From: Alphaproteobacteria bacterium
Lineage (GTDB): Bacteria > Pseudomonadota > Alphaproteobacteria > JABAAW01 > JAHZMA01
Assembly (NCBI GenBank): GCA_965205905.1
Contig: CBDBHZ010000012.1
Coordinates: forward strand, 79,528 to 143,527
DNA: 64,000 bases
Reading direction: 5' to 3'
The stretch's first letter is position 1; each line of letters opens with the position of its first letter. A program made the translations under genes and the position numbers. Below the pieces are notes generated by a model. The model searched no databases, had not been told where the DNA came from, and saw nothing but the letters and a program-made list of their open reading frames with translations. Shown here in pieces: positions 24,802 through 48,300 of the stretch.

Positions 24802-24920
24802 TATAAATCTCCCTTTTAAATATCAAACTTACCAACAATCTCACTTATGAAATTCTTGATAATTGCATTTTACAGATATGATTTGTTAATGTCAACTCAT
24901 TATTTTGATAATAAGATTAA

Positions 24921-25090: not shown

Positions 25091-25092
25091 TG

Positions 25093-25664: not shown

Positions 25665-25689
25665 ATATTTGTTTTATTTTATATGAGAT

Positions 25690-25878
25690 GGGGGTGGGTG
25701 TCAAGAAGTTCTCGATGGGAGTGTTAGGTACAGCGGTGGGGGGGGTGGTGAGGGGTGAGGCAAGCTAGATATGAGTATGAGGTATGGCGGGGGGATTATC
25801 AAGGGGGGCATCACGAGCTGATTGGCGCACCGCCAGAATCAGCGAAGTGTATGTCGCACCCCCCTTGATACAATAACG
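25690..25878. repeat. Intergenic repeat element copy B (~190 bp), homolog of copy A with the same terminal inverted repeat and G-tracts (G8 at 25738-25745)
   Basis: Read directly. gcggtggggggggtggtgaggggtgaggcaagc...ggcggggggattatcaaggggggca...gtcgcaccccccttgatacaataa. The ends are conserved and the central loop is divergent relative to copy A. Confidence 0.7.
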
Positions 25879-25880
25879 AC

Positions 25881-25915
25881 AACAAAAAAGGCGCGGTGCT
25901 TGAGAGCATCGCGCC
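25881..25915 (-). terminator. Rho-independent terminator of the minus-strand giant lipoprotein gene
   Basis: Stem GGCGCGGTGC (25890-25899) / GCATCGCGCC (25906-25915) with a 6-nt loop. On the minus strand it is followed by TTTTTTGTT (complement of 25881-25889). It lies 22 nt downstream of the stop at 25938. Confidence 0.75.
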
Positions 25916-25937
25916 TTTGGTATTTAGTCTCTATCGG

Positions 25938-28900: not shown

Positions 28901-31771
28901 TAACATAGCCACGCTCTGTGCCGAACCAACCGACATAACCGCCATTTAGGCTTGATAGGCTGAATGTTCCGCCCAATTCGTTGGTTAAACCGCCATAGAA
29001 ACGGGCAGAAGCCGTGCCTGTAAGTTCACTATCACCTATAATGGTAAAAGAATTATCAGAGCCTTGAGTGATAACATCAGCGAAATTGAGCGCGTTTGTG
29101 CCTGCGGTGTAAGTTGCATCACCCTTGAAATTAAGGTGATTGCGTTTTTCGGCACTTGCGTTACAACCTGCAGAAGAGGTGCAAGTGCCACTGCTTTCTA
29201 GCATAACCACGCGTGTGCCAAAATTAACATCTGCTTCAATGTTAAAGGAAATGGGGGTGCTTACCATGCCACCGCCATTGGTATTATAGCTATAAGCGCC
29301 TGCGCCCTTGCCAGTGAATGTGGTTGAACCAGTGCTGAAAAGCGGATTATCGCCATCGGTAGCGGTTTCAAACCCGCCAATGCCGTAGCCGATAGTATCG
29401 CCGACAACCCAATCAATCCGTGCCATATAGGTGGCATCAAAGCCGAACGGAGTTCTATCTAGGTTGAGAGACGCGCCCGAATCAGCCGTGCCATCTTTAT
29501 CAATATCAACAGCCGTGCCAGAAATGGATTTTAAATCAGATGAGGTGCCTAACGTTACCTGATAGATGCTACCGCCAATATAGAGTGTGGGCGCCTTTGA
29601 CGTTTCATTGAACTTATATCAAACGAACCACCACCATAGCGATAGCTAACCGCGCCACCCGTGAAGGTTTCGTTGGTAACAATATTGGCAGTGTTATCGG
29701 TGGTGATTTGCGCCATAGAGGCAACAGGTAGCGCGATAATACGTTGGACGCCGCCATCTACGACAAAGCTTGTTGCGCTATCAAGGCTTTGCACTGGCAC
29801 GTTATCGCTATCAGTTGCCACAGCATCTTTGGCATCAATCACATAGCCACGTTCTGTGCCGAATAAGCCAACATAGCCTATGGTGCTATCTGTTGTGCCG
29901 AAATTGAAAGTGCCGCCGAATTCTTCGGCGTTTGCTCCGTAAAATTTGGCTTGGGCTGTGCCAGAAAGGGAGGCGATATTGTTTGCGGGTGTTTGCGTAT
30001 CAACAAGCCCTGCGGTGGTTACCGCGCCCGTGATGGCGTTTGTGCCTGTATTGTAGCTTAAATTGCCCGTGAAGTTGAGGTCATCACGTTCCGTGTTTAT
30101 GCATTCACCAGAGCATGTGTCAGTGGTTGCGAGTGCAACATTGCGCGCGCCGAAATCAACTGTGGCGGTAATATCAAAGCTAGTGCCAAAAGTTCCAATG
30201 CTATCAGAATAGCGACCCCAACCCTCGCCCTTGAAGATGGTAACGCCAGAGGGGATAAGTGCCGTGCTGGCGGTTTCAAAGCCAGTAACGCCAAAGCCGT
30301 AATTATCGTAATCATAGTCAATATCAGTTGTGCTGGCGGCATTATCGTTATCTAGCACTTTCCATCTTAAACCGAGCATGTAATCAGCCTGAAAGCCGAA
30401 CAGAACGCGTCTATCAAGGCGGGCAGTATTAGGGGCAATGCCATCAGTGCTGGTTACGCTGCCAGCACTGGACGCAGATTGAATGTAATCAGCATCAGTT
30501 TCGGCATTTTTCGTGATTATCTGATAGGTGGTATCAGTAAGATAGAATTTGATGCTAGTAGAAAGAAAGTTTAAGCCATTATAAGCAAATTCTAACGTGC
30601 CAGTGATGTTTTCAGCATTGATATTCATGCCATCAGCAGGACGGGTGATGCCCACCAGTGAATCAATATCAAAGATAACAGTTTTATTAGCACGATTGGC
30701 ATCGTTAAGACTGGTTAATGCCATAAGGTCTTCAGATGGGCGCAATATGCCACGTTGACCGCCATAAAACGCGCCATAATAGTAGTTTGTTGCGCTTGAG
30801 ACGGCGAATGTGCCGCCAAATTCATTGGCACCACCGCCAGCCGCATTGCCATAGAAACGGGCATCAAGACTGCCTGCCATGCCATCTAAATCAGTGAAAC
30901 TGTGGTTGATATTGTTTATAGTGGCATAGTTGATGTTGGTTACGGCGAAATCAAGTTGCGTCAACTGTTCTGTTCCCGCTTTTGTGTTGTTGGCGGTGAT
31001 GTTTACATTGGTATTTGTAAAATCAGCGACGGTGGTAACATCAAATGTAACATCTTTGCCGCCATCAACAGTGCCATAAACACCCGCGCCCGCACCCGTA
31101 AATGTGGTTGTGTTAGAGAGAGGGATATTGCCATCTTCGGTGAGAACACCCGCGATCGCCATGCCGTGAATATTGTTAGATGAGCCTGTTGTTGCGCTAT
31201 CCGTAAATTCGGTTTCGTTAATGTTCCAGTTGATATAGGCGACATAATCAGAGGCAAGCCCGAAAAGAGTGTTTCTAGTAACCGTGCCAGTTAGCGATTC
31301 GCCAGCATCGCCATAATTTATGGTTGCCGAATCAGCGGTAGCGTTAAATGTGATGTTAGCAGTCGCGCCAGTGATTCGCGTTGGGGTGATTTGCTGATCG
31401 ATTTGTAATTTTGATTTATCGTTAATATCCCAAGCCGTGTTGGCAGCCGAATCGGCACGTGTGTAGTCGCCGTTATCGTTCAGGGTAACCGCCAAAGCCG
31501 ATAATGTTATGAGGGTATCGTCAGTAACATCAGCAAGTGTAGGGTATGTGGCGCTATCAAAAACGGTATCGTTCGGGGTTGTGGTTGATACCATATCAAG
31601 CGGGTTGATGGTTGCTGATTCGCTTCCCACGAAGACTGGGTCAGTAGGGGCAGGGGCAGGGTCAGGGTCAGTATTGCTAGCGCCTCCGCCTCCGCCAGAA
31701 CTGCCACCGTTACAAGCGGTGAGGGTGATCAGTGATAAAACTGAGATGGTTGAGATAAGTAAATGACGCAT
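25938..31771 (-). pseudogene. Giant surface lipoprotein 2 (~1940 aa if intact), interrupted by a -1 frameshift near 29555-29620; 1 type-1 + ~5 type-2 lobe modules. It is either a true pseudogene/phase-off allele or an assembly error in repetitive DNA
   Basis: True start ATG at 31771 (MRHLLISTISVLSLITLTAC|NGGSSGGGGGASNTDPDPAPAPTDP, RBS AAGGA), 39 codons inside track ORF 29555..31888. Frame A ends ...VSYRYGGGSFDISSMKRQRRPHSILAVASIR* at 29555. The conserved sequence continues in the -1 frame (YKFNETSKAPTLYIGGSIYQVTLGT...RTPFGFDATYMARIDW), running into track ORF 25938..29426, whose listed 'M' is an internal Met of the conserved FGF...YMA.I.W motif. Confidence 0.6.
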
Positions 31772-31807
31772 GATTTCTATCCTTTTAACATAGCGATAGA
31801 TAAAATT

Positions 31808-31836
31808 ACTATAATGTTTTTTTGGTTGGGGTGCAA
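31808..31836 (-). promoter_or_regulatory. Candidate sigma70 promoter of giant gene 2: -35 TTGCAC (31836-31831), 17-nt spacer containing an A7/T7 homopolymer (31817-31823), -10 TATAGT (31813-31808)
   Basis: Read on the minus strand: TTGCACcccaaccaaaaaaacatTATAGT, ~37 nt upstream of the ATG at 31771. Confidence 0.4.
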
Positions 31837-31877
31837 TAGTGGTTATGGAAATTTTGATAATATCAGCGAGATATAAC

Positions 31878-31905
31878 TTGACTATCATTTGATATTGCTT
31901 ATGAT
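31878..31905 (+). promoter_or_regulatory. Candidate sigma70 promoter of giant gene 3: -35 TTGACT (31878-31883), 16-nt spacer, -10 TATGAT (31900-31905)
   Basis: Read directly in the 166-bp divergent intergenic region; the ATG is at 31938. Confidence 0.4.
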
Positions 31906-31937: not shown

Positions 31938-34900
31938 ATGAACAAATATTTTTATATCATCACTTTATTAATGGTTTCTGTTTTTTTGAATGGTTGTAGC
32001 ACAGAACGTGGTGGCAGTGGCATTGTGAGCTCTGGCGTTGTGAGCGATGATGTGTTTATCGCTGATAGCATTAAGAAAGATGAGACTGATGAAGTTTTTG
32101 CAACCGTTACTCCCTATGGTTCGTTGACGGCAGCATCGGCTGATATCGAGAATACGGACGATAAAATATTCACCTTGCAAGGGTTGGCGGTGCAAGGTGG
32201 TGAGGTTACCAATTACACTGCCGGTGGCGATTTTGGGTGGTCGCAAGATGGTGAGACAAGCATCACTGTTGCCACCATCACAGCGCCTGCTGTGAGCCTC
32301 ACTTTTGATGGTAATGGCAAGATGTCGGCAGTAAAAGCTTATTTCGCTGATAAAACCTATGAAGTTTCCGCTAATGGTAATGATTCCGCCATGCAGATTA
32401 GCGCAACAAATATCACCAGTGGTGCACAAACAGATGCCACTATCGCCACACTTACTGTGGATAGAGACGAGGTTTTTGGCTTTGATTCTAACTATATGGC
32501 ATATATTGGCTGGAATCTTGAAAGAACGCAAGGTGATGCTAATCGTTTAGACTCGCTTGGTAGTGGTAAGGATAGGGCTTATAGTATCAATGGTAATATG
32601 ATTGTAGGAATTGAAACCGATGATGTGAGTATTCCTAGAAATGGTGAGGTTAGTTTTATCGGCAAAGGGCGCGGCTATTACAGCCATGTTGATAAAGGAA
32701 TCAGTAGCCATGCCACGATATTTGATGTTACGACTGATGTTGATTTTTCTACTCAAACTATCAATGTTAATAGTGCGAATACAATGCAATGTGGCAATAG
32801 CATTGATGTTAGCAGTTGCAAAACTGCTGTAGGTGCGCTTGAATTTAGCACGCAAGAAACATTTGTTTACATCACTAATAATAAGATTGGTTTTCGTGGC
32901 GATGTTTCGCTGAAATCCGATAGTAGTTTTACAGGCACCATTGATGCGCGTTTTTATGGCAGTCGCGCACAGGAATTAGGCAGCATATTTGCGATGCGTG
33001 ATGAAACAGGTGGCTATTATTATGGCGCATTTGGCGGTGAGCGCGAGGGGGTGGAAGCGCCCAGCGTATTTAATACAGCAATAGGTGATGAGGCATTAAT
33101 TGTTGCCGAAGAAATAAAGATAGATAATAAGATTACAAACAACCTTCCTGTTAATTCGCTGACCGCTGTGGCTGATGCGGGCGATGGCAATGCGTTTACG
33201 ATGCGCGCTTTAACTGTTTATAAAGATGATACCACCGATTACATACGTGCGCCAAATCGGGATTGGGCTAGGGCGGATACAGCGCGTATGGTTGGACTCA
33301 CACAATTAAGTGGCGCTGCGGCGTCTCTCACTTTTGATGCTGCTGGTAAGATATCAGGTGTAACTGCCTATTTGAATAGTAAAACCTATACAGTCAATGT
33401 GATTGATGACACACTTACACCCACTGCCACGATGTTTAGTGCCAGTATTAACGGTGCGGATAAAGATGCACGCACGACTAACATTACTGTTGATAGAGGC
33501 GATAAATTTTTTGGCTTTGATTCTAATTATATGGCGCATATCAGTTGGAATTTGGAAAAAACAGACGATAAGCTTACGACCGATATGTTGGATGTATATG
33601 ATGACATTTATCATATCAGCGGTGCGATGTTGGCAGGGATTGAGACTGATGATGCGGATATTCACTTGTTCGGCAATCAAGTTTCCTTTAATGGTAAAGG
33701 GCGTGGCACTTATGGTGATTTAGATGGAAGCTATGATACTATATTTGATATAACAGCGATTGTTAATTTTAGCGCGCGCAATCTACTGCTTGCTAGCTCT
33801 AATACTTGCAAAGCGACTGACTGCGAGAATGAGGCGATGCGTGACCTTGATTTCAGTATTTCATCAGCGCCGATATTCTATAATAGTAATAATATCAGTG
33901 CTAATATAAATGATGCAGATTTCGGCTCAGTTGCGCTTGATGCGCGTTTTTATGGCGGTGATGCGTGGGAGTTTGGTGGCACATTCGCGATAACATACGC
34001 GACTAATAATAGCTATTATTATGGCGCATTCGGTGCGTTACGTAAAGGTATCACTGCGCCATCGATATTTGATGCCACAATAGACAGTGAGACGGTAAAG
34101 CTACCAGATAATGTTACGGCGCCGTTTATTCCTATTGATATTGCTACCAACAACCCTTATGAATCTCTCACTGCCATTGCAGGCACTGATAAACGCGTGG
34201 TGCTGAATGCTCTATCAGTTTATAAAGATGATACCACTATTTACACACGGGCGCCAAAGCGAGATTGGGCAACAGATGCGGATAAGGTAACAACAACCAG
34301 TATTCTCAGGCTTACTGACTCTGTTGCATCGCTTGTTTTTACTGGCGATAATAAAGGTGAAACGCTTTACGTGAATGATGTTTATACCAATGATAATGCC
34401 ACAATTACTGTTGATAGAAGTAAGGTTTTTGTTTTTGGTTCTAGCTATATGGCTTATATCAGTTGGGGCATAGATAATGAATTTGATAATGATAACACGG
34501 GCTTAACGGGTGAAGTTGTTGATATTAGTGGTAAGATGCTTGCTGGTATTGAGACCAATGATATGAATATCGCCTTAACTGGCGAGGTTTCCTTTAACGG
34601 CAAAGGGCGTGGCACTTATGGTAATGCAGACGAAGAAATCTACGATACTGTGTTTGATGTTAGGGCGGGAGTTGATTTTGTCGCCAAGAATGTTACGATT
34701 TGGAGTGAGAACACATGCAAAGCAGGTGATGATGCAAAATGTGATGTTGGTGGTGCAGATAGGCGTGATTTTCTTGATTTTACATCAGCGATATTAAGTT
34801 ACGCTGATGGGGAAAGCAATGCGGTCAATCATATCAGCGGTGCTGTTCATGCAGATGGCTTGGCGGGCACAATTGATGCGCGTTTTTATGGTGGTGCAAC

Positions 34901-37900
34901 CGAAGAATTTGGTGGCACATTCGCGCTTACCAACCTATCAAACTATTATTATGGGGTGTTTGGTGCGTTGCGTGGTGGCATTGCTGCATCGACAATATTT
35001 GATAACAACATCGTTGATGAGACGGTAACGCTTCCAGCTGATGTTACCATCAGCACCACTCATAACTCCCTTACCGCTGTGGCTAAAGCAAGCGGCACGA
35101 ATAGTCTCACAATGAAAAGTTTAGCGTTTTATCAAAAAGATACCACCGATTACACGCGGGCGGAAGGTCGCGAATGGAGCACAGCAGATGAGCAAAAAAC
35201 AAGCAGCATGGTCAGGTTGCTGGATTCTGCCGCATCACTTAGTTTTGATGGTGGCGATGTTTCAGCTGTAACGGTTTATTTGAGTGGCACGAATCATACT
35301 GCTGACGCAAGCAAAGTGAAGCGCGCGGCTGATTTTTTTGGCTTTGATTCAAACTATATGGCCTATATCAGTTGGGACATAGATAATCATTTTGATGATG
35401 ATAGCGAGGGTTTAGAGGCGAGTGTTGTTGATTCTAACGGTGTGATGCTGGCGGGTATAGAGACTGCTAGCTTGCTAGATATAACCGCTGGCACAGTTGA
35501 CTTTATCGGCAAAGGGCAGGGTTCTTATGGAGATGCGGACACAAGCTATGACACCATCTTTAATGTGATTGCATCAGTTGATTTTGCTGCAAATAATGTA
35601 ACGATTCGCAGTGAAAACACATGCAAGGCAGTTGAAAATGCTGATTGTGGCGAGAGTGGCACTGATAGGGTGAATGGTCTTAATGTCAACACAGTCGCAA
35701 TCGGCTATGCTGCTAATAGTATCAGCATAAGAAACTTAAATGTAAAAGATATGGATGGTGCGCTTGATGCCCGTTTTTATGGTGATGCAACGCGAGAATT
35801 TGGTGGCACATTCGCGTTTGCCAGTAATATAAGCTATTATTATGGCGCGTTCGGTGCGGAACGTGATGGTGTTGCTGCGCCGATTATATTGAATGTTGCG
35901 AATAATGTGTCGGTAACGTTGCCAAATGATGTTAACATCAGCACCACCTATAACTCTCTTGCCGATGTGGCTGATAGCATCTCTCTTGCCGATATTTATT
36001 ATGGCATAGTCACGAAAAGCATCACGATGAACGCGCTATCTGCCTATCACGATGATACCACCCTTTACACGCGTGCAAGCACGGATAAAGTTTGGACTAC
36101 TAAAGCCGATAAAGCGCAAACCATTGATATTAAAAGTTTTCGTGGCGCGGCGGCATCTCTCATTTTTGATAGTGATGGCAATATATCAGGCGTAACGGCC
36201 TATTTGAACGGGCGCACCTATATTTCCGATGTGATTGATGGCACACTTACTGCCACATCATTTGAAGCAAGCATTACTGGTGCAGATAGTGATGCCAGCA
36301 CGGCAACCATCACTGTTGATAGAAGCGCGCTTTTCGGCTTTGCCTCTAACGATATGGTTTATATCAGTTGGAATCTGGAGAAAACTGAAAGCGCACTTGA
36401 TAACACAATAGAAGATAGCATTTCTAGCAATACTGGCGCGATGATAGCTGGCATTAAAACGTATGAGCTCAATAGTGTCAAATTTCTCAAGGATATAACA
36501 TTTTCAGGTAAGGGGCGTGGCACTTATGGCACGGTGGAAAATAATGAGCTCAAGGGTTATAATACCGTTTTTGATGTTATCGTTGATGTTAATTTGGCTA
36601 ATGCTAGAAAAGCAACGATTCGCAGTGAAAAAACATGTGAGGCGGTTGATAATCCCGATTGCGCGGATGGTGGTGCGAATCGGAAGGATTTTCTTAATTT
36701 CAGCACGGGCGAAATCGCTTACACAGGCAACAGCATCAGCGGTGATGTTGCGCTTGGCAGTAGTAATCTATTTAAAGGCACGCTTGATGCCAGATTTTAC
36801 GGCTATGTTAGGCATGAAATTGGTGGCACATTCTCGCTTGCCAATAGTAACAGCTATTATTATGGTGCGTTTGGTTCAAAGCGCGATGCAGTTTATCAAT
36901 TTGATTTGAATGCTAGTCAGGTTGAATTGCCTGTGGGTGTTGTTGCGAAGCAGAATGTCGCTATACCTGATGCTTCTATTTATCATGCGATTAGTGATAA
37001 AAGTGGCACAGAAGATAGGCTGTTTACCATGAAGGCACTCTCTGTTGGTGTATTTGCTTACACTAATTATGCGCGCTCGCCCAACTATGAGGCATGGGAA
37101 ATATCTGATAGAGATAAATATGTACAATTGGCAAGGTTTGAAAATTCTTTTGCATCGCTTACCATTGATGGAAGCGGAAATTTATCGAATATAGAGGCTT
37201 ACACAAAGGCTGGCTTCGCTAATCTTTCTTACACAGGCAGTTCCTCTAGCCTCAATCAAACCACATTAAGCAGTGATATCAATAATTTTAGAGGAAGCTT
37301 TGCATGGTATGAGACTGATAGCACAACAATCAACGTATCGCGTGATACCAGTCTGTTTGGCTTTGAAGCGACTGATATGGTCTATATCAGTTGGAATATC
37401 GTTGAAAAATTAGGTAATTATGAAAAGCGGGATAGGCAACAAAAACGGCATGGCATGATGATTGCGGGCATTGAAAGTGAGCTTGCACAGATTCCCACCA
37501 TAGAATCAGTAACATTTTCAGGCAAAGGGCGCGGTTATTATGCAAATCTTAAAACTGAAACTGGCTTCCATACAATCTTTAATGTAACGGCGCAAGTTAA
37601 TTTTGCTAATAAGAGCCTATTCATTAGCAGTGATGCGCCTCAAAGATGCACGGATGTGGAAGATGCCAGCACTTGCACTGGTTCGGGGCTTAATGGCTTC
37701 AACGCAATTAATATTCAGTTTTTGGCTAATAATATCAGTGGTGATATTGCTATGGCTAGTAGTGGTACTATACCTCGCTTATCAGGCAAGTTTGATGCGC
37801 GGTTCTATGGTGATGCGGCGCATAAATTGGGTGGCACATTTGCCCTAAGTGATAATGATGGTGATAGTGATAATACGCGCTATTATTATGGGGCGTTTGG

Positions 37901-40900
37901 TGCGCAACGGCTAGATGCTATCACGCAATTTAAGTTTGATGAGACATTGGCTGAAGAATCAGGGCCAAAATCAACATTAGCCTATCTTACCGACAATCAA
38001 ACAGAGTATGATTCGCTTCATGCGGTGGCAGTTACTGATGGCAGTAATAGCTTTACCACCAATGGCAGCGCTGTCTATCAAAGCAATCATATTGATTATG
38101 CCAGAATTGCCAATAAGCAATGGGGTGATGCCAGCACTGATACCGACCATAACATTAATCTCGGCAGGCTTAGTGATGTGGGTGCATCGATTAATTTTGA
38201 TGCTAATGGCAATATTTCAGGCTTTGCCACCTATCTATCAATTAATCCCTATATTGCCACCAATATCTATACAATTACGGTGGATAATCCAGTCTCTAAT
38301 ACTGATGTGGTCTCGCAAAATATCACTGCTACTGATACTCCTGATGATGCCATTACGGGCGTGATGAATCTCTATCGCGGGCAAAGCTTTTTCGGCTTTA
38401 ACTCATATTATATGGCTTATATTGATTGGCAGGTTACCAGAGACTTTACCGATTTAGGCACTGGCACCACTGATAAAAGCTATGATTATAGCGGCGCCAT
38501 GCTCACGGGTATAGAAACAGAGGATGTTAGAATTTTCAATTTGACGGAAGGCATATTTGACTTTAAGGGCAAAGGGCGCGGTGTCTATCACAATACGGAT
38601 ACGGGCAAAGGCGGGCAGACAATCTTTGATGTAACCGCCAATGTTGATTTTGCCACTAAAAAACTCACCATCAATAGTTCAAATAGCATTGTCTGTTTAG
38701 ATATTAACAATATCGGCACTTGCACATCTAACCATAATATCGGTGAATTTTCTAACGGAAGCACCCCTATATCTTATATTGGTAATAATATTAACGGAGC
38801 TGTTACTGCCACTATCGGTAATGCTAGCCTATCAGGCACACTTGATGCCCGCTTCTATGGTGTTAGCCCGTATGGTAGTGGCGCGTATGAATTAGGTGGC
38901 ACATTCGCCATGACTGGAGGCGATTATTACTATTATGGCGCATTCGGTGCTGAACGAATCTATACCAGTGTTGAAAATGTTGCTACCACCCATTCTGAAA
39001 CTCCCTCATCCTCTGATTTTAATAAGCATACTCTAACAGGCTTTAATGCTAACAATCTTGCAGGTAAAACAGGTAATGCCCTACCTGCCAATGCGGTGCA
39101 AATAACAGAATATGACAGTGATCAAAAAATCCTCACTGAAAACATCATGGGTGCAGTGGTAGAATTTGATTATGATGGCGATAGTGAATTTAGCAAATTA
39201 ACATTATATTTTGATGATAAAAAATACATAACAGACGGTTATCCAAACACTGATTCTTTATACATTAAGGATGATTCACCCAGTGGTGGTGCCTATTCAA
39301 TATTCTTTAGAAGAGATTATATTTTCGGTTCTACGAAGAATTATATGGCGGGTGTTGCATGGTCTGTTTCAGTAGATGATTATCCTGAATATTATACTGC
39401 AAGTTATGCCGTTACGGGTTTTGAAACTGTTACAATTCCGGGTAGTGATATGATTGTGTTTACAGGCGAAGGGCGCGGATATTATTCAACGAGTCAGGGG
39501 TTGGGTGAGACTAGTAGTTATGTTTTCTTTGATGTAACTGCCAATATTGATTTCAGCAACCGAAAAGTATATCTATTTGCCAGTGATACTTATCATTTTC
39601 CTCAACTTGATTTTACGGGTCAATTAAGCTATCAAGCAGGCACTAATAACATTAGCGGTGCTATTGAAACAATCGGTGATGGTTATACCAACCTAACAGG
39701 CACAGCCGATGCCAAATTTTATGGCACAGGTGCTGATAGTGCCACAGAATTTGGAGGCACATTCAGCCTGTATAACGAGCAATCAGCCTATGTTGGTTAT
39801 TTCGGTGCAAGCAAATTTATTGATAATATCATAACGACAACCATTACCACTCCTGCACTTAATCAACATAATTTAACAGGCTTTTATGATGGCAACCGCA
39901 CAAGTAAAACCAATAATGCCCTTAAAGCAAGCACTGTGCAGATAACCAAACAGAAAAGCGGTGATGAAGAAATCACCAACGATAGAATCACGGGTGCTGT
40001 GTTTGAATTTGATTATGATGCTGATGGTGATTTTGTGGGTATTCACCATTATTTAGCTGATAAAAAATATAGCAGGACTTCTTCTAATGGCGGTGAAACT
40101 CGTCTTGAATGGGGAACGGTTACGACAAGTAATGGTGACAAACTTAATAATTTTGCGTTCAACACAGAAGGGAGATATATGGCAAGGGTTAAATGGAGAT
40201 TGCTTGAAGAGGAATATACCTATAGAACTTATGCTTATGGTTTCACTGGTTATGAAACCAACTCTATCCCTACCACTGGTGCTGTTAGATTTGCTGGCGA
40301 AGGGCAAGGACAGTATTATTCTACTGACGATTATCCTGATGAGATTTACTTTGATGTAATCGCCAATGTTGATTTTAGCAACCATAATATAACTTTATTA
40401 GTCGGCGAGCTATTATTCGGCAATGAAATTGATCAGAGTCACCATCTTGATTTTACCGCTAATTTAAGCTATCAAGCAGGCACAAATCTTATTAAAGGTG
40501 CGGGTGTAACCATTGGTGATGAGTACGGTAACAACAAACTAATAGGCACGGTTGAAGCAAAATTTTACGGGCCCAATGCCGTAGAATTTGGCGGCACCTT
40601 TAGCTTAAGCAATGATGATACAGCATATATAGGTTACTTTGGTCTTTCACAAAAATATACTCTCTCTCATCAAACATTGGCAACCACATTTCCCAATGTG
40701 CCAACAGCGCCAGCTACCAGCATAACAGGTTTTGATGATACAAACCGCAACAACACAAGTAACCATACCTTAAACAGCACTGTGGTGCAGATGATAAGCA
40801 ACCCTGCTGATAAAATCACCACTCAAAGTAACATTACTGGTGCGGTGATACAGTTTGACTATGATTCTAATGCTAATTTTAACGGCGTAAGGTTCTATTT

Positions 40901-42380
40901 TGATAATAAAAAATATAGCACGACTGCAACTGGAGATAATAATAAATTGAACGATAGTTGGACTGTTGATGCAGGCATTCATAATAGTCCCGATGATTTT
41001 AAATTCACCCAGAAGGCTGTGCCTGATGACTACAATAGCTTCGACTTTGCCCCTAGCTATATGGCATGGCTTAATTGGCACTCCTATGAATATGGCTATG
41101 TTGACGATGGTTATGCTGTTACTGGTTTTGAAACGGCTGATATTCCTACCGTTACGGGCATAACCAGTTTTACAGGCAAAGGGCAAGGGGAGTTGAATGA
41201 TGATACTTATTTACTTATAGCTGCTGATGTTAATTTTAACAGCCTTCAAGTAAAACTATCAGCCACACATGAAGGTTATCTTAGCGAGCTTGATTTCACA
41301 GGTATATTAAGCTATGTAGCAGATAAAAATCTGTTTGCAGGTGATATTACAACCACAGGTGGCATTTATTTCTCAAAAATGTTTGGCACAGCCGAAGCCA
41401 GACTTTACGGACCCAATGCTGAAGAATTTGGTGGCACATTTGCTTTACAAAATGATGATTTTGCCTATATTGGTTGGTTTGGGGCGATACGACCTGCGGG
41501 AACTCTTACCAATCAAGCACCAGTGGCTGACTTTGAACAAGATAAAACAACCTCCACTCCCACCACTGCGCCTGCGGTTTTCAACCAAAACAATCTCACT
41601 AGCTTGAGTGATGATGCCCGTATCGGCACAAAAGGTAATAAATTACTTGGCATGGTAACCACGCTCACCAAAGCAAGCGATAATACAGTTACCAATGGCG
41701 GTATCACCTCTGCCGCAGCTGAACTTTCTTATGCTGATGATGCTAAATTTAATGGTTTAACTCTCTATCTGCCTGATAGAAAATATAGCACAACCGATGA
41801 AATTGATACGGATAATTATATTTATGATAATACGCCCAGTGCTGATGACGGGCATGATACACCGAACACCTTTGGGTTAAGCAAATCTGCCTCGCCTTTC
41901 TCGTTTGCCGCAGATTATATGGCACGCATTTACTGGCGATTAGATAAAGCGAGTCATGGTTATGATGGCTATGGTTACGCCATCACTGGTTTTGAAACTG
42001 ATAGCAATAATATCCCCACCACTGGCGGAGCTACATTCACAGGCAAAGGCGAAGGGCAATATTATAGTAATAATAGCAGTAAGAAATATTTTACTGTAAC
42101 CGCCACTGCTAATTTTGCCACCCGCAATATCAACCTAGCAACCACGCATACTGATACGAACTATAGTTATCTTAACCTAACAGGCACTTTAAACTATGCG
42201 GAAGATACAAACGCCATCACTGGCGCGGTTGAAACCGTTGGCACTGGCACGGAAGCATCAAAACTGAAAGGCACGGCAGAAGCCAGATTTTACGGGCCAG
42301 CGGCAGAAGAATTAGGCGGGGTATTCAGCGTTAGCAATGAAAATGCAGGCTATATCGGCTATTTCGGAGCGAGGAAATAA
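31938..42380 (+). CDS. Giant surface lipoprotein 3 (3480 aa): lipobox FLNGC|ST, ~7 type-1 + 4 type-2 TbpB-like lobe modules
   Basis: Start MNKYFYIITLLMVSVFLNGCSTERGGSG... The YYYGAFG marker recurs at ~33010, 34011, 34944, 35834, 36854, 37880 and 38925. Type-2 module ends (AYVGYFGASK, AYIGYFGLSQK, AYIGWFGAIRP, GYIGYFGARK) fall at ~39790, 40630, 41470 and 42350. Each module carries a conserved Cys pair (e.g. NTCKAGDDAKCD). Confidence 0.85.
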   Translation: MNKYFYIITLLMVSVFLNGCSTERGGSGIVSSGVVSDDVFIADSIKKDETDEVFATVTPYGSLTAASADIENTDDKIFTLQGLAVQGGEVTNYTAGGDFGWSQDGETSITVATITAPAVSLTFDGNGKMSAVKAYFADKTYEVSANGNDSAMQISATNITSGAQTDATIATLTVDRDEVFGFDSNYMAYIGWNLERTQGDANRLDSLGSGKDRAYSINGNMIVGIETDDVSIPRNGEVSFIGKGRGYYSHVDKGISSHATIFDVTTDVDFSTQTINVNSANTMQCGNSIDVSSCKTAVGALEFSTQETFVYITNNKIGFRGDVSLKSDSSFTGTIDARFYGSRAQELGSIFAMRDETGGYYYGAFGGEREGVEAPSVFNTAIGDEALIVAEEIKIDNKITNNLPVNSLTAVADAGDGNAFTMRALTVYKDDTTDYIRAPNRDWARADTARMVGLTQLSGAAASLTFDAAGKISGVTAYLNSKTYTVNVIDDTLTPTATMFSASINGADKDARTTNITVDRGDKFFGFDSNYMAHISWNLEKTDDKLTTDMLDVYDDIYHISGAMLAGIETDDADIHLFGNQVSFNGKGRGTYGDLDGSYDTIFDITAIVNFSARNLLLASSNTCKATDCENEAMRDLDFSISSAPIFYNSNNISANINDADFGSVALDARFYGGDAWEFGGTFAITYATNNSYYYGAFGALRKGITAPSIFDATIDSETVKLPDNVTAPFIPIDIATNNPYESLTAIAGTDKRVVLNALSVYKDDTTIYTRAPKRDWATDADKVTTTSILRLTDSVASLVFTGDNKGETLYVNDVYTNDNATITVDRSKVFVFGSSYMAYISWGIDNEFDNDNTGLTGEVVDISGKMLAGIETNDMNIALTGEVSFNGKGRGTYGNADEEIYDTVFDVRAGVDFVAKNVTIWSENTCKAGDDAKCDVGGADRRDFLDFTSAILSYADGESNAVNHISGAVHADGLAGTIDARFYGGATEEFGGTFALTNLSNYYYGVFGALRGGIAASTIFDNNIVDETVTLPADVTISTTHNSLTAVAKASGTNSLTMKSLAFYQKDTTDYTRAEGREWSTADEQKTSSMVRLLDSAASLSFDGGDVSAVTVYLSGTNHTADASKVKRAADFFGFDSNYMAYISWDIDNHFDDDSEGLEASVVDSNGVMLAGIETASLLDITAGTVDFIGKGQGSYGDADTSYDTIFNVIASVDFAANNVTIRSENTCKAVENADCGESGTDRVNGLNVNTVAIGYAANSISIRNLNVKDMDGALDARFYGDATREFGGTFAFASNISYYYGAFGAERDGVAAPIILNVANNVSVTLPNDVNISTTYNSLADVADSISLADIYYGIVTKSITMNALSAYHDDTTLYTRASTDKVWTTKADKAQTIDIKSFRGAAASLIFDSDGNISGVTAYLNGRTYISDVIDGTLTATSFEASITGADSDASTATITVDRSALFGFASNDMVYISWNLEKTESALDNTIEDSISSNTGAMIAGIKTYELNSVKFLKDITFSGKGRGTYGTVENNELKGYNTVFDVIVDVNLANARKATIRSEKTCEAVDNPDCADGGANRKDFLNFSTGEIAYTGNSISGDVALGSSNLFKGTLDARFYGYVRHEIGGTFSLANSNSYYYGAFGSKRDAVYQFDLNASQVELPVGVVAKQNVAIPDASIYHAISDKSGTEDRLFTMKALSVGVFAYTNYARSPNYEAWEISDRDKYVQLARFENSFASLTIDGSGNLSNIEAYTKAGFANLSYTGSSSSLNQTTLSSDINNFRGSFAWYETDSTTINVSRDTSLFGFEATDMVYISWNIVEKLGNYEKRDRQQKRHGMMIAGIESELAQIPTIESVTFSGKGRGYYANLKTETGFHTIFNVTAQVNFANKSLFISSDAPQRCTDVEDASTCTGSGLNGFNAINIQFLANNISGDIAMASSGTIPRLSGKFDARFYGDAAHKLGGTFALSDNDGDSDNTRYYYGAFGAQRLDAITQFKFDETLAEESGPKSTLAYLTDNQTEYDSLHAVAVTDGSNSFTTNGSAVYQSNHIDYARIANKQWGDASTDTDHNINLGRLSDVGASINFDANGNISGFATYLSINPYIATNIYTITVDNPVSNTDVVSQNITATDTPDDAITGVMNLYRGQSFFGFNSYYMAYIDWQVTRDFTDLGTGTTDKSYDYSGAMLTGIETEDVRIFNLTEGIFDFKGKGRGVYHNTDTGKGGQTIFDVTANVDFATKKLTINSSNSIVCLDINNIGTCTSNHNIGEFSNGSTPISYIGNNINGAVTATIGNASLSGTLDARFYGVSPYGSGAYELGGTFAMTGGDYYYYGAFGAERIYTSVENVATTHSETPSSSDFNKHTLTGFNANNLAGKTGNALPANAVQITEYDSDQKILTENIMGAVVEFDYDGDSEFSKLTLYFDDKKYITDGYPNTDSLYIKDDSPSGGAYSIFFRRDYIFGSTKNYMAGVAWSVSVDDYPEYYTASYAVTGFETVTIPGSDMIVFTGEGRGYYSTSQGLGETSSYVFFDVTANIDFSNRKVYLFASDTYHFPQLDFTGQLSYQAGTNNISGAIETIGDGYTNLTGTADAKFYGTGADSATEFGGTFSLYNEQSAYVGYFGASKFIDNIITTTITTPALNQHNLTGFYDGNRTSKTNNALKASTVQITKQKSGDEEITNDRITGAVFEFDYDADGDFVGIHHYLADKKYSRTSSNGGETRLEWGTVTTSNGDKLNNFAFNTEGRYMARVKWRLLEEEYTYRTYAYGFTGYETNSIPTTGAVRFAGEGQGQYYSTDDYPDEIYFDVIANVDFSNHNITLLVGELLFGNEIDQSHHLDFTANLSYQAGTNLIKGAGVTIGDEYGNNKLIGTVEAKFYGPNAVEFGGTFSLSNDDTAYIGYFGLSQKYTLSHQTLATTFPNVPTAPATSITGFDDTNRNNTSNHTLNSTVVQMISNPADKITTQSNITGAVIQFDYDSNANFNGVRFYFDNKKYSTTATGDNNKLNDSWTVDAGIHNSPDDFKFTQKAVPDDYNSFDFAPSYMAWLNWHSYEYGYVDDGYAVTGFETADIPTVTGITSFTGKGQGELNDDTYLLIAADVNFNSLQVKLSATHEGYLSELDFTGILSYVADKNLFAGDITTTGGIYFSKMFGTAEARLYGPNAEEFGGTFALQNDDFAYIGWFGAIRPAGTLTNQAPVADFEQDKTTSTPTTAPAVFNQNNLTSLSDDARIGTKGNKLLGMVTTLTKASDNTVTNGGITSAAAELSYADDAKFNGLTLYLPDRKYSTTDEIDTDNYIYDNTPSADDGHDTPNTFGLSKSASPFSFAADYMARIYWRLDKASHGYDGYGYAITGFETDSNNIPTTGGATFTGKGEGQYYSNNSSKKYFTVTATANFATRNINLATTHTDTNYSYLNLTGTLNYAEDTNAITGAVETVGTGTEASKLKGTAEARFYGPAAEELGGVFSVSNENAGYIGYFGARK
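32100..38960 (+). repeat. Intragenic tandem array of ~7 type-1 lobe modules in giant gene 3 (period ~900-1050 bp), followed by 4 type-2 modules to 42380
   Basis: Motif periodicity read from the translation. Boundaries are approximate. Confidence 0.65.
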
Positions 42381-42384
42381 CATC

Positions 42385-45300
42385 ATGAACAAATATTTTT
42401 CTATCATCACATTATTAATGGTTTCTATTTTTTTGAATGGCTGTAGCACAGAACGCGGTGGCAGTGGCATTGTGAGCTCTGGCGTTGTGAGCGATGATGT
42501 GTTTATCGCTGATAGCATTAAGAAAATCGATACTGATGGGACTTATACAACTGCTGCCCCCTATGCTTCTTTAACGGCAGCATCGGCTGATATTGATAAT
42601 CAAAACGATAAGATATTCACCTTGCAAGGGTTGGCGGTACAAGGTAGTCAGGTTACCAATTACACTGCCAGTGGTTCTTTGGGGTGGAATCAAGAGGGTG
42701 AGACAAGCATCACTGTTGCCACCATCACAGCGCCTGCTGTATCTCTTACTTTTGATGAAGATGGCATGATGTCGGAAGTAACCGCTTATTTTGCTGATAA
42801 AACCTATAAGTATGATATTGCGCTTGATGAGAGCGTGTCTGCATCTGCTACGCTTATAGATACAAAAGATATTACCAGTGGTGCACAAACCGATGCCACT
42901 ATCGCCACGCTTACTGTAGATAGAACCGAGATTTTCGGCTTTGCTGACAATCAAGGTAACGCACTTGAGTCGAATTATATGGCGTATATTGGCTGGAATT
43001 TTGAAAGAACGCAAGGCGACCCCAACCGATTAAGTTCGCTTAGCAGTGATAAAGATACGGCTTATAGTATTAATGGCAGTATGATTGCGGGCATTGAAAC
43101 AGCGAGTGCGAATATTCCTAGCAATGGTAAGGTGGAATTTATCGGCAAGGGACGTGGGTTTTACAGCCATGTTGATAAAGGCACAGCAAGCCATGCCACC
43201 ATATTTGATGTTACCACTGATGTTGATTTTGTTGCAAAAACAGTGGATGTTAATAGCAAGAATACCATGCGATGTAGTGATAAGAATAAAGCCAGTAGTT
43301 GCACAACTGCCCTAAATGGACTTAATTTTGGCACGACAGAAACATTCATTTACATTATCGGTGATGCGGTTGGTTTTCGTGGTGATGTTTCATTGAAAGC
43401 GAATAAAACTTTTACGGGTACAATTGATGCGCGTTTTTATGGTGGCAGAGCGCAAGAGCTAGGCAGTACATTTGCGATGCGTGATGAAACAGGTGGCTAT
43501 TATTATGGCGCATTTGGTGGTGAGCGAGAGGGGGTTGAAGCATCGCCTTTATTGGATGCCACAATAGCTGATGAGACGATAACGCTTCCAAATGATGTTA
43601 TCGCGCCATTGATTCCCATTGATATTACGACCGCCAACCCTTATGAAAATCTGACTGCTATTGCAGGCACTGATAAACGTGTGGTGCTGAATGCGTTATC
43701 GGTTTATCAAGATAATACCACGCAATATATACGGACACTGAATCGGGATTGGGCAACAGATGCTGATAAGGTAACAACAACCAGTATCGTCAGGCTTGCT
43801 GGCTCTGCGGCATCGCTTGTTTTTGCTGGCGATAATCAGGGTGCAACGCTTTACGCGAAAGAGATTTATACCAATGATGATGCGACTATTATTGTTGATA
43901 GAAGCACGATTTTTGGTTTTGGTTCTAGTTATATGGCCTATATCAGCTGGGATGATATAGATAATGAATTTGATAATGATAACACGGGCTTAACGGGTGA
44001 AGTTGTTGATATTAGTGGTAAGATGCTTGCTGGTATTGAGACCAATGATATGAATATCCCCTTAACTGGCGAGGTTTCCTTTAACGGCAAAGGGCGTGGC
44101 ACTTATGGCAATGTAACGACAAGCGAGGATACTGTGTTTGATATAACAGCAGAGGTTGATTTTGTTGGCAAGAATGTTACAACAATTAGTAGCAAGAACA
44201 CATGCAAAGCGTTTGATGGTGCTAAATGTGGCGTTGGTGGTTCTGATAGGCTTGATTTTCTCAATTTCACATCAGCGATATTAAGTTACGCTGATACAGA
44301 TAATGCGACAGTCAATCATATCAGCGGTGCTGTTCATGCAGATGGTTTGGCGGGCACGGTTGATGCACGTTTTTATGGTGGCGCAACCGAAGAATTTGGC
44401 GGTACATTCGCGCTTAACGATAGTTCAAATTATTATTATGGGGTGTTTGGTGCGTTGCGTGGTGGCATTGCTGCATCAACAATATTTGATAATAACATAG
44501 TTGACGAGACGGTAATGCTTCCAGCTGATGTTACCATCAGCACTGGCAATAATTTGCTTAATAATACGAATGATGGTGATATTGTAACGTTGAAAGTGCT
44601 ATCATTTTATCAAAATGATAGCACCGATTATACGCGGGCGGAAAATCGGGATTGGGGCACAGCGGATGAGCGAAAAACAACCAGCGTGGTCAGGATGCTA
44701 GGTTCTGCGGCATCGCTTAGTTTTGATGGTGGCGGTAATATATCAGGCGTAACGGCTTATTTGAAAGATTCCACGCACACGGCTGACCCAAGCAAAGTGA
44801 AGCGCGGGACTGATTTTTTCGGGTTTGATTCAAACTATATGGCTTATATCAGCTGGGATATAGATAATCATTTTGATGATGATAGCGAGGGTTTAAAGGC
44901 GCGCGTTGTTGATTCTAGCGGTGCGATGCTGGCGGGTATAGAAACGACTAATTTGCTAGATAATACAGCTGGCACGGTTGAATTTAAGGGCAGAGGGCAG
45001 GGTGCTTATGGCGATGCGGACGACGATTATGCCACCATCTTTGATGTAACCGCATCAGTTAATTTTGTTGATAATAATATAACGATTTACACTGAAAACA
45101 CGTGCCAAGCAGATGATTGCACGAAGCAGCCAGAGAATAGTCTTAATTTCAACACAGGCGCAATCGGTTTTGCTGATAATAGCATCAGCAAAAGGAACTT
45201 AAATGTAAAAGGGATGGATGGTGCGCTTGATGCCCGTTTTTATGGTGAGAAAACGCGTGAATTTGGCGGCACATTCGGGTTTGCCAGTAATTTAAGCTAT

Positions 45301-48300
45301 TATTATGGCGCGTTCGGTGCGGAACGTGATGGTGTTGTTGCGCCGATTACATTGACTACTTTTAACCCGAATGGCGCAAATGTTTCAACCATCAATACTG
45401 CTATTGCTGCCAATAATCCTTCTTTCAACTCCCTTACCGATGTGGTTGATGCAGGTGATGGCAATGCTTTCACGATGCGTGCGCTATCAGCCTATGAATA
45501 TGATAACACAACCTACACACGCGTGAGTAACAATAAAGAGTGGAGCAGCAAAGCCGATAAAGCGCAAAGCATTTATATTGTAGGGCTTTCAGGCGCGGGC
45601 GCCTCGCTCACTTTTGGTGGTGATGGCAATATATCGGGCGCAACCGCCTATTTGAACGGCATCACATATACAACCGCTGACCTTACGGTTGATAGAAGCA
45701 CGATTTTTGGCTTTGCCTCTCACAATATGGCTTATATCAGTTGGAATTTGCAGAAAGCTGAAAGCGCGCTTGATAATGAAAGCGATTATTTATACGATTT
45801 CATCTTTGACGATGCAGGTATGATGCTAGCGGGTGTTGAAACCGCTGAAACTGTTTACGATATGGATGGCGATGTTGAAACGGAAGGCAAAATTCTCACA
45901 TTCGCTGCGGCTGAATTTACGGGCAAGGGCAAAGGCACTTATGGTACGGTTACCAATAATGTTCTCACGGGCTACAATACCATCTTTGATGTGACCGCAT
46001 CAGTTGATTTTGAGGGTAGGGCGGTAACAATTCGCAGTGAAAATACTTGCGAGGCGGTTACAAACCCCGATTGCACAGATAATGGCGTGAATCGGCAAGA
46101 TTTTCTTGATTTAAGCACATCGGCTTTAAGTTTTGTCAGTGCTCCTGATATTTATGGAGATAGCGTTGCTGTCAACAGCATCAGCGGTGATGTTGCGCTT
46201 GATAGCAGTAATATATTTAAAGGCACGCTTGATGCCAGATTTTACGGCTATGCTGGGCGTGAATTTGGTGGCACATTCTCGCTTGCCAACGCCAGCAGCT
46301 ATTATTACGGTGCGTTTGGTGCCAAGCGCGAGACGGTTTACAAGTTTGCTTTGGATGATGCGAAGATTGCGGCACCTGATAGACGAGATGCTCAATTTAC
46401 GCTAGATGCTCCTGATGTTTCACTTCATCATGCGATTAACGATGCAAGCGCCACAGAAGATAGAGAGTTTACGATGAATGCATTGGTTGTCAGTGCAAAT
46501 AATTACACTGATTATGCGCGTGCGCCCGGTGAAGCATGGGAAACATCGAATAGAAATAAAAAGTTTAGTCTGGGAAGAGTTGCAGGGTCGCATATATCAC
46601 TTACCATTGATGAAGATGGCAAACTATCTTATATGGTTGCGCGCGAATTAGGCAGCGGCTCTCTCACTGATGATGGCAAAGGCGATCAAACTTTATCAGC
46701 AGTTGATAGAAATGAGACGAACACTAGTCTAGACATCATCAACATATCGCGCCGTGAAGAGATATTTGGTTTCGTGATGACTGATATGGTCTATATCGAT
46801 TGGAACAGGAGTAATAAATTGCTTGCAATCGGTGATCCCGAAACAGAAGCCTTTATAGGCGGAAATCATGGCATGATGATTGCGGGTATTGAAACTGATT
46901 ATGCACAGATGCCTACCGCAAACGCAGTTGTTACTTATTCTGATGATGATGAAGAAGATGATTATGATATAGGTAATGATCATTATGCTATTGCAGTTAA
47001 ATTTACGGGCAAAGGGCGCGGCTATTATGCAAATCTTAAAACTGAAACTGGTTTTCATACTATCTTTGATGTAACGGCGCATGTTGATTTTGTTAGTGAA
47101 TATATAACGATTGATAGCGGCGCCCCTCTTAAATGCACAGATGTGAATGATTCAAGCACATGCTCTGCTTCAGGGCTTACTGGTTTTTATGCGATTGATG
47201 ATATATATTATAATGCTAATGATATAAGCGTTGATATTGCGCTTGAAAATGATTATCAATTTCAAGGCACGCTTGATGCGCGCTTCTATGGCGATGGCGC
47301 GCATAAATTTGCTGGCACTTTTGCCATGAGTGATAGTGATAATACGCGTTATTATTATGGTGCGTTTGGCGCGCAGAGAGAAACGGCGATTGAAGAATTT
47401 AACTTTGATAAAACATTGGCTGAAGAATCAGGGCCTAAATCAACATTAGACTATCTTACAGTCAACCAAACGCCACATGAGTCGCTTCATGCAGTGGCGG
47501 TTGCTGATGGCAAGAATGGTTTCACCACGAAAGCTCTGGCAGTCTATCAAAGCAATCATAAAGATTATGCCAGAGTGCCAAATAAAGCTTGGGATGATGC
47601 CAGCACTGATAAAGACCATAATATTAATCTCGGCAAACTTAGCGGTGCTGGTGCAACCATTGTTTTTGATGAAAATGGTAATATTTCAGGCTTTGCCACC
47701 TATTTATCATCTAACCCCTATATTGCCACCAATATCTATACAATTACGGTGGAAAATCCTGTCTCTAACAGTGATGTGGTTTCGCAAAATATTACGGATA
47801 CCGATACTCCTGATGATACCTCTACGGGCGTGATGAATCTGTATCGTGGTGAAAGCTTTTTTGGCTTTAACTCAGAATATATGGCATATATTGATTGGCG
47901 GGTAACCAGAACATTTGCTGATTTGGGTGATGACACCATTGATAGAAGCTATGATTATAGCGGTGCCATGATTGCGGGCATAGAAACGACAGACACAAAG
48001 CTTTCTAATAATTCATCAGGTATAGTGAACTTTAAGGGCAGAGGGCGTGGCTCCTATTACAACACCAACACGGGCATTGGCGAGCAAACAATCTTTGATG
48101 TAACCGCTAAACTTGATTTTGGCAATAAAAATGTTACCATCAATAGTGCCAACACCATTGCCTGTGCTGATTTCAGCAATATTGGCACTTGTGGCATTTC
48201 TGATATTGGTGAGTTTTCTACGGGCATTATATCTTATAGGGACAATCTAATGTATTCTCATAGTGCTCATAATAATATCAGTGGCGCTGTTAAAGCCAAT

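Follow-up and report, generated by a model that had tools for sequence, protein, structure and literature searches.

The 64 kb window analyzed here (the whole stretch of 64,000 nucleotides, taken from one alphaproteobacterial contig) contains four paralogous giant lipoprotein genes, one of which is frameshifted, and their products are arrays of lobes of two types, with a block of type 1 (T1) lobes followed by a block of type 2 (T2) lobes. Does this order record how the arrays grew, or is it kept for its function? Host-adapted pathogens are known to catch ligands with one or two copies of the handle-barrel lobe, as in TbpB, fHbp and hemophilin; such catchers are exported by the Slam/type XI secretion system (T11SS) route and are usually tied to an uptake receptor. 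We propose, with a probability of roughly 0.6, that the T1-to-T2 order is mostly history, namely in-place amplification of each lobe type from a two-lobed ancestor, and that the proteins are multivalent surface proteins rather than TonB co-receptors. The lobe itself is known; its 6-14-fold iteration in two ordered classes, without linked Slam or receptor genes and in an uncultured alphaproteobacterial lineage, is not described in the literature searched. The largest architecture reported there has two to three lobe pairs (PMC12282271), compared with up to 14 lobes in the giant family. The ordered two-class array is a clean natural case of local tandem duplication preserving domain order, and the window together with its relatives makes the choice between history and function a directly testable question.

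Module boundaries were set by a recurring Y-x-G-x-F-G ending together with phmmer self-matches. Altogether, 37 modules of 279-395 aa each were obtained (10 + 6 + 11 + 10 for genes 1 to 4), close to the approximately 38 claimed in an earlier note on this DNA, and DNA repeats with a period of 0.85-1.05 kb confirm the modular build. Each module was cut at the F-x-G-x-G-x-G-x-Y motif that opens the barrel, and the handle and barrel halves were scored separately, in a leave-one-out manner, against hidden Markov models (HMMs) made from the other modules of each type. For 36 of the 37 modules, the HMM of their own type gave by far the better score in both halves (handles of T1, ~105-178 bits with their own model vs 5-70 bits with the other; handles of T2, 68-152 vs 7-34 bits). 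Clustering of BLAST scores by the unweighted pair group method with arithmetic mean (UPGMA) gave the same split, and neighbor-joining (NJ) bootstrapping separated T1 from the rest at 79%, and T1 plus the single outlier, g1_m10, from T2 at 91%. The distinction of two module types drawn in the earlier note is therefore upheld, and the motifs quoted there for each type agree with the consensus lines of our T1 and T2 alignments. The Cys pair of the barrel loop, proposed as a mark of type 1, is not one: it is present in 19 of the 21 T1 modules and in 9 of the 15 T2 modules.

Mean identity is 38% within T1, 34% within T2 and 27% between the types (maximum 33%). The handles (T1-T1 37%, T2-T2 33%, T1-T2 27%) are more diverged than the barrels (47%, 44% and 38%, respectively). 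In a profile-profile alignment (hhalign), columns 78-306 of T1 and 65-305 of T2 are homologous with a probability of 99.96% and 33% identity, whereas the first 65-77 residues, corresponding to the linker and the first handle hairpin, cannot be aligned. This region carries the signature 'L.AL.V...D.T.YTR....W' in T1 and 'FN..NLTSF.DD.R.GT..NAL' in T2. Homology thus covers the barrel and the latter half of the handle, and the difference is mainly N-terminal, with type-specific signatures throughout. The outlier g1_m10 (aa 2754-3100 of gene 1) has a T1-like handle start, 'LKALTVQTVKSNTYTR..TAWD', scores almost equally with both types (T1/T2: handle 45/35 bits, barrel 78/80 bits) and is placed between the clades; its closest relatives are only 30-32% identical and of mixed type. 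We considered it as a recognisable third lobe class and rejected this, as it is an orphan. On the strength of these comparisons of sequence, T1 and T2 are real, old lobe subfamilies.

With this HMM-based typing the T1 block still precedes the T2 block in all four genes. The module counts given earlier stand for gene 2 (1+5), gene 3 (7+4) and gene 4 (6+4), while gene 1 has 7+2 and one outlier rather than 7+3. To what extent this polarity is a property of the family was addressed by an exhaustive HMMER search of 1.84 billion representatives with a profile made from the four T1-T2 junction bimodules. A threshold of E<=1e-3 was reached by 971 proteins, of which 140 also passed E<=1e-30 and form a sizeable, so far uncharacterised family; a word-indexed homologue search returned 26 (T2) and 5 (T1) matches, with the giant proteins absent from its result. 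The largest relative, P0032, has 4,491 aa and 14 lobes (nine T1 and five T2). Few members carry names, and the named ones come from uncultured Alphaproteobacteria in every case, under the name 'transferrin-binding protein-like solute binding protein [Alphaproteobacteria bacterium]'. When one genome per species was scanned, the sole reference genome to match was that of Alphaproteobacteria bacterium X_S6_bin.7 (JAHZMA01), with 15 loci and about 20 giant-type lipoprotein genes. This metagenome-assembled genome (MAG) is described as coming from Vazella/Haliclona sponges (2026 paper, PMC13393909); no paper on transferrin-binding-protein-like lipoproteins in sponge symbionts was found in the literature searched. 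Copies with 78% identity, riddled with frameshifts, are present on L001, a low-coverage contig from a long-read metagenome.

We typed the lobes of 172 retrieved proteins with the window-derived HMMs, which classify most lobes of about 130 representatives (<=50% mutual identity) with large margins. Transitions between adjacent lobes were T1>T1 in 159 cases, T2>T2 in 84, T1>T2 in 36 and T2>T1 in 4, and 37 of 41 mixed proteins are strictly T1-before-T2, as opposed to 9.7 expected for random order given the composition. The polarity therefore holds far beyond the window. Architectures range from T1-T2 through 1+2, 2+1, 1+4, 4+2 and 7+3 up to 9+5, and most complete relatives terminate in a T2 or an atypical lobe, not in T1. 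The two-lobed T1-T2 lipoproteins P0118 (690 aa) and P0137 (563 aa) fit an ancestry like that of an N-lobe and a C-lobe. There are also departures from the rule. L004 is a complete T2-only lipoprotein with three T2 lobes straight after the lipobox, and T1-only proteins comprise L010b, which is complete and single-lobed, and P0084, P0098 and P0103, a group that may include fragments; P0029 and P0140 are further single-lobe relatives. Four proteins violate the order (P0048, '111121o'; P0060/L006, '2211222'; P0052; P0139), and nine lobes are chimeras, with handle and barrel of different types, and are frequently located precisely at the T1/T2 junction, as with the T1-handle/T2-barrel lobe of the '1X2' arrangement in P0102 and P0104. 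Because T1-only and T2-only proteins, order violators and chimeras all occur, and because a duplication model reproduces most of the order (see below), polarity does not by itself imply different functions. The claim of the earlier note that the types differ in function and are not an expansion of one unit thus survives as far as two old subfamilies are concerned, and fails in deriving function from polarity; functional specialisation of T1 and T2 is possible.

Genes 3 and 4 offer a closer view of how the arrays grow. They are paralogues in tandem, and their T1 lobes correspond position by position as orthologues (54-77% identity, with lobe 2 of gene 3 extra), so the orders of lobes in these two genes are not independent evidence. 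Their T2 lobes are 32-49% identical and show no positional orthology. The first 300 nt of the two genes are 88% identical, and a 157-nt tract is nearly identical between lobes that otherwise share ~77% of their residues at the protein level (Table 1); shorter tracts of 93-94% identity lie at 35833-35895/45296-45358 and 37861-37906/47330-47375. These tracts are likely to be recent gene-conversion patches between genes 3 and 4. The seven T1 lobes of gene 1 are monophyletic (81% NJ bootstrap), with g2_m1, the only T1 lobe of gene 2, as their sister (94%), and the T1 lobes of genes 3 and 4 are separate from them, which indicates that T1 arrays expanded independently in different genes. Among 44 reciprocal-best lobe pairs within proteins of at least five lobes, 30 are immediate neighbors (offset 1), and 10, 3 and 1 pairs have offsets of 2, 3 and 4, respectively.

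Using this offset distribution for block sizes, we simulated growth from an ancestral '12' by block tandem duplication for a set of 38 proteins (P0068, P0033 and P0034 were excluded). On average 29.4 +/- 2.2 of the 38 simulated proteins were ordered, as compared with 34 observed and about 9 under random order. Local duplication thus explains most of the polarity, and selection on order is not needed to explain most of it. The model is crude, and offset-2 pairs can also stem from single-lobe events; the small excess of observed over simulated order (P ~0.03) is within what this crudeness allows.

The history that we favor would therefore run as follows. Starting from an ancestral two-lobed T1-T2 lipoprotein, local tandem duplication would have multiplied each lobe type where it stood, and gene conversion would have acted between paralogues. 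In this process blocks would remain blocks, and rare duplication or recombination across the junction would give the interleaved or chimeric forms. The N-terminal Cys would be lipidated and anchor the protein in the outer membrane, probably with surface display via a Slam/T11SS-like route, and the T1 lobes would lie next to the membrane and the T2 lobes, which diverge faster, at the opposite end. In an uncultured alphaproteobacterium that is probably associated with invertebrates, the product would serve as a multivalent protein for binding or coating, and not as a co-receptor of an adjacent TonB-dependent transporter. If surface-exposed, the giant proteins are candidate host-interaction or nutrient-capture structures of animal symbionts, and they would probe the upper cargo size of a Slam-type route.

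Several observations weigh against this account. The observed order slightly exceeds that of the neutral simulation, leaving room for some selection for polarity, and the simulation treats proteins as independent although real ones share ancestry. To account for the much greater divergence of T2 than of T1 between genes 3 and 4, either T2 must evolve faster or conversion must be restricted to T1. Neither g1_m10 nor many lobes in relatives match either type. Surface exposure, the export route and the ligand rest on inference: no Slam/DUF560 gene is present in the 64 kb analyzed (the remainder of the 579,725-bp contig and of the genome was not searched, so that genome-wide absence is not established), and the NCBIfam model NF041636 'Slam-dependent surface lipoprotein' (slam_lipo) gives at best 30.8 bits, for T2, against a cut-off of 80.

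Part of this evidence would be expected if the polarity were kept by selection, with T1 as a proximal spacer, stalk or conserved binding array, and T2 as a distal variable effector array and/or a C-terminal barrel recognized by Slam/T11SS. Such a role of the last barrel has a precedent in TbpB, where the barrel of the C-lobe has been described as the putative domain for T11SS targeting and the N-lobe as the effector (PMC12282271). In favor of selection, order is somewhat stricter than in the simulation, T2 diverges more than T1 between genes 3 and 4, T2 or an atypical lobe comes last in most complete relatives, and T2 is nearer to TbpB barrels in sequence: the T2 profile has weak matches to barrels only among PDB sequences (4qq1 at E 5.5e-4), and the T1 profile has none at E<=1. 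The slam_lipo scores have the same tendency, with no match for the T1 lobe g3_m3; the odd lobe reaches 22.3 bits and the first lobe of gene 3 20.3 bits. On the other hand, an export signal would not need three to five copies of T2, the similarity of T1 lobes between genes 3 and 4 stems at least partly from gene conversion, and lipoproteins made of one type only, T2>T1 orders and chimeric lobes all occur. We regard selection for polarity as possible, though doubtful. A more specific proposal is equally tentative, namely that lipoproteins of TbpB fold with many lobes (6-14 lobes, up to 4,491 aa, ~20 genes in one related genome) form a class not described before, in which T1 may be a conversion-homogenised proximal spacer or scaffold and T2 a fast-diverging distal tip that binds a ligand or host. 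Alphaproteobacteria associated with sponges or invertebrates would display these proteins on their surface, with no gene for Slam or a TonB-dependent receptor adjacent.

The topology assumed in our account of in-place amplification can be compared with predicted structures. As read in the translations, a lipoprotein signal peptide with a signal peptidase II lipobox stands at the start of all four products (FLNGC occurs twice), and a lipobox is found on all complete relatives examined. Since the lipobox Cys is at the N-terminus, T1 would be membrane-proximal and T2 distal. The higher divergence of T2 fits a variable distal end, and it could equally result from conversion confined to T1. We ran AlphaFold2 with paralogue alignments on lobe 3 of gene 3 for T1 (34038-34967) and on lobe 11 of the same gene for T2 (41487-42377). 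The models have a predicted local distance difference test score (pLDDT) of 78 and a predicted template modeling score (pTM) of 0.81 for T1, and 87 and 0.85 for T2. Both consist of a low-confidence linker of ~25 residues, a handle of 6-8 strands and an eight-stranded barrel, which suggests that the lobes are arranged as beads on a string. The T2 handle is complete, with 6-8 strands at pLDDT ~90, and similar in size to the T1 handle; the part preceding the barrel has ~174-224 aa in T1 and 158-204 aa in T2, T1 being slightly longer on average. In T1 modules, residues 1-20 right after the preceding barrel (e.g., 34038-34097, 'xRxGVxxPxxF...') have a pLDDT of 83-85, with residues 10-19 modeled as a strand and a disordered loop of ~25 residues next; this initial strand may clamp successive lobes together.

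Structure matches in the PDB were to Slam-cargo lipoproteins only, with fHbp, HpuA, NHBA, hemophilin (HphA) and PmSLP/fIbp among the top matches for both lobe types. At the sequence level the repeated TbpB_B_D domain (PF01298) is the sole Pfam family recognised, with E values of 1.7e-57 for gene 3 (nine stretches), 2.9e-31 for gene 1 and 1.8e-43 as a third value. The TbpB handle families of Pfam were not matched, and beyond TbpB_B_D nothing was found at E 0.01 except two sub-threshold chance matches. Judged from the models, each lobe is a TbpB/fHbp-fold lobe, as in TbpB, LbpB, HpuA, fHbp and hemophilin. Each giant gene stops 2-5 residues past the last barrel strand, e.g., after '...YIGYFGARK', and the TbpB_B_D domain of gene 3 extends over residues 3359-3480. 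The lipobox, a fold shared only with lipoproteins exported by Slam/T11SS and the C-terminal barrel make an outer-membrane, surface-displayed protein probable. All lobes are strongly acidic (net charge per lobe -7 to -31), and the N-terminal regions are rich in Gly, Asn, Asp and Ser, with no PT/PTD repeat arrays.

The fold, the Pfam barrel family and the database name all invite the view that the giant proteins are enlarged but otherwise ordinary TbpB/LbpB-type iron co-receptors, which feed a TonB-dependent transporter under iron limitation. The genomic surroundings argue against this. Neither Slam/DUF560 nor a TonB-dependent receptor was detected when the 20 other window ORFs (open reading frames) of 150 aa or more and 10 neighbours from the related MAG were scanned with Pfam, and no TonB system (TonB/ExbBD) lies beside any of the four giant genes or among the 10 tested MAG neighbours. 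The window neighbours belong to ordinary metabolism (homogentisate pathway, GlcDEF-like oxidase, TRAP transporter, two short-chain dehydrogenases, MttB-family methyltransferase, glycine-betaine-type ABC transporter, aldehyde dehydrogenase and DAO-type oxidase), and the 10 MAG neighbours are unrelated housekeeping genes, including those for Cas9, GltBD, FtsK and thiolase. As there are no nearby receptor or translocon genes and the paralogues are scattered among housekeeping genes, classical TbpA/TbpB-type uptake is unlikely. Moreover, no convincing Fur, Irr (ICE) or RirA (IRO) box was detected in three upstream regions and the gap 24802-25937 (the best Fur match has 6 mismatches in 19 positions, the best ICE match 5 in 14 specified positions), no match was obtained to the TbpB handle families of Pfam, and a vertebrate-type transferrin ligand is not expected a priori for a genome related to a sponge MAG (PMC13393909). 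We consider the iron co-receptor model improbable.

It is even less probable that there are no true types and that the dichotomy is an artefact of four close paralogues within a continuum of lobes. Besides g1_m10 and the nine handle/barrel chimeras, this view could draw on the many lobes in relatives with handles of neither type, comprising all five of L012 (5942-10522), the terminal lobes of L010a and L016, several in L005 and L014, and L010 at 8.0-9.0 kb. However, these lobes score low with both HMMs and look like additional handle classes beyond T1 and T2 rather than intermediates, 36 of the 37 window lobes separate by large margins in both halves, and the same two HMMs sort most lobes of the representatives mentioned above. 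Least of all do we credit the arrangement suggested in the earlier note, with T1 as distal ligand-binding lobes and T2 as a membrane-proximal stalk lacking handle loops: the types are indeed distinct and ordered and T1 handles slightly longer, but the N-terminal anchor reverses the topology and puts T2 farthest from it, the T2 model carries a full handle of high confidence, T2 is the more variable type between paralogues, and T2-only lipoproteins occur.

TbpB and LbpB are surface lipoproteins with two lobes that bind transferrin and lactoferrin and occur in Neisseriaceae, Pasteurellaceae and Moraxellaceae. They share with the giant proteins the N-terminal lipobox and the eight-stranded lobe barrels (PF01298), and differ in having two lobes instead of 6-14 (10, 6, 11 and 10 in the window genes). 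The giant-protein handles match neither the N-lobe nor the C-lobe handle family of Pfam, and with 6-21% identity to TbpB/LbpB neither T1 nor T2 maps specifically to the N- or the C-lobe. TbpB and LbpB are encoded beside the TbpA/LbpA receptor, in contrast to the giant genes, which have no adjacent gene for a TbpA-type receptor or Slam. The same handle-barrel lobe is present in fHbp, HpuA, NHBA, hemophilin and PmSLP/fIbp. Cargo of the fHbp type has one lobe of 150-300 aa and is encoded beside a Slam/T11SS gene, whereas the giant genes encode iterated lobes at scattered loci; both end in a C-terminal eight-stranded barrel. One or two TbpB_B_D domains per cargo have been reported (PMC8406197). 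The nearest described architectures are the 'Sphingomonas' and 'Psychrobacter surface proteins' (Microb Genom 2025, PMC12282271), predicted T11SS cargo with two to three handle-barrel pairs that was read as domain duplication with functional specialisation. Like the giant proteins, they are lipoproteins with more than two handle-barrel pairs. They are reported to have N-terminal Pro-Thr/PTD repeats and to be encoded near T11SS genes, neither of which applies to the giant proteins, and their two to three pairs compare with 6-14 pairs in two ordered classes in the giant family.

RTX/Bap-type adhesins have tandem domains, with a stalk of Ig-like repeats and terminal ligand-binding modules. The likeness to the giant proteins (thousands of residues, high acidity, tandem duplication, a repeat block followed by a different terminal block) is one of analogy only, as the two differ in fold, in anchoring, which is by lipid in the giant proteins, and in secretion route, and no sequence or structural similarity was found.

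The positions of the four genes and their lobes are listed in Table 1. The coordinates 31938-42380, under which the earlier note described all four genes, cover gene 3, and the other three lie outside them.

Table 1. Giant lipoprotein genes, lobe blocks and related features (positions in the window)
Feature	Position	Strand	Description	Basis
Giant gene 1	7807-17109	+	3100 aa, lipobox LFLTAC, 10 lobes	ORF
Gene 1, T1 lobes (7)	7807-14256			module typing
Gene 1, T2 lobes (2)	14257-16065			module typing
Gene 1, atypical terminal lobe	16066-17106		g1_m10	module typing
Giant gene 2	25938-31771	-	start MRHLL at 31771, lipobox LTLTAC, 6 lobes	three-frame reading and repair
Gene 2, T1 lobe (1)	30764-31771	-		typing
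Gene 2, T2 lobes (5)	25941-30763	-		typing
Gene 2, frameshift	near 29617 (29600-29630)	-	inside T2 lobe 3	three-frame translation and DNA
Giant gene 3	31938-42380	+	3480 aa, lipobox FLNGC, 11 lobes	ORF
Gene 3, T1 lobes (7)	31938-38951	+		typing
Gene 3, T2 lobes (4)	38952-42377	+		typing
Giant gene 4	42385-52140	+	3251 aa from MNKYF, lipobox FLNGC, 10 lobes	
Gene 4, T1 lobes (6)	42385-48435	+		typing
Gene 4, T2 lobes (4)	48436-52137	+		typing
Near-identical tract, genes 3 and 4	34470-34626 (gene 3 lobe 3) vs 43957-44113 (gene 4 lobe 2)	+	157 nt, 99% identical	repeat search

The mechanical ORF of gene 4 starts at 42337, 48 nt upstream of the real start and within the end of gene 3. The real start (MNKYF) is 5 nt past the stop of gene 3, and genes 3 and 4 are probably co-transcribed. 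The start sites of genes 4 and 2 agree with those of the deposited proteins P0033 and P0068; P0033 is identical to gene 4 from residue 17 of the mechanical ORF, and gene 1 is exactly identical to the database protein P0034. Gene 2 is split into two minus-strand ORFs (29555-31888 and 25938-29426) with a 128-nt gap and, when repaired, gives a product of ~1,940 aa. The reading across the single frameshift is '...YRYGGGSFD' followed by 'KFNETSKAPTLYIGG...', and inspection of the DNA revealed no homopolymer at the site; gene 2 is thus either a pseudogene or affected by an assembly error. Of gene 2, the deposited gene call P0068 covers the N-terminal part alone (738 aa); its interpretation as a short T1-T2(-T2) protein was rejected, since it is the truncated product of the frameshifted gene.

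Two short-chain dehydrogenase genes (52146-53671) lie on the same strand as gene 4 and start 5 nt past its stop, so close that a terminator would not fit in between, and the giant genes may be transcribed together with them. The MttB-family methyltransferase gene adjoins an OpuAC-type ABC transporter (53698-58408), and the TRAP transporter is found with the GlcDEF-like oxidase genes at 17191-24801. Judged by gene content, these two groups indicate a lifestyle based on methylated amines or osmolytes and organic acids that is typical of marine bacteria. In the sponge MAG, a Cas9 gene (L002 10008-13865; HNH_4, RuvC_III, Cas9_a) is located ~100 nt downstream of an 11-lobe giant gene. A 505-aa ORF at L012 3942-5456 is divergent from the five-lobe gene of neither type and matches no Pfam family at E<=0.001; the same protein recurs at L016 10494-12008. 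Base composition within the giant genes varies along with lobe type: G+C is 0.40 in the T2-coding stretches (38001-42000 and 48001-52000) vs 0.42-0.44 in the T1-coding parts of the same genes, and GC skew in the T2 and T1 parts is 0.03 vs 0.13-0.19 for gene 3 and 0.06-0.10 vs 0.13-0.17 for gene 4. An antisense ORF of 187 aa (31968-32531, minus strand) is wholly contained within gene 3 and is probably spurious.

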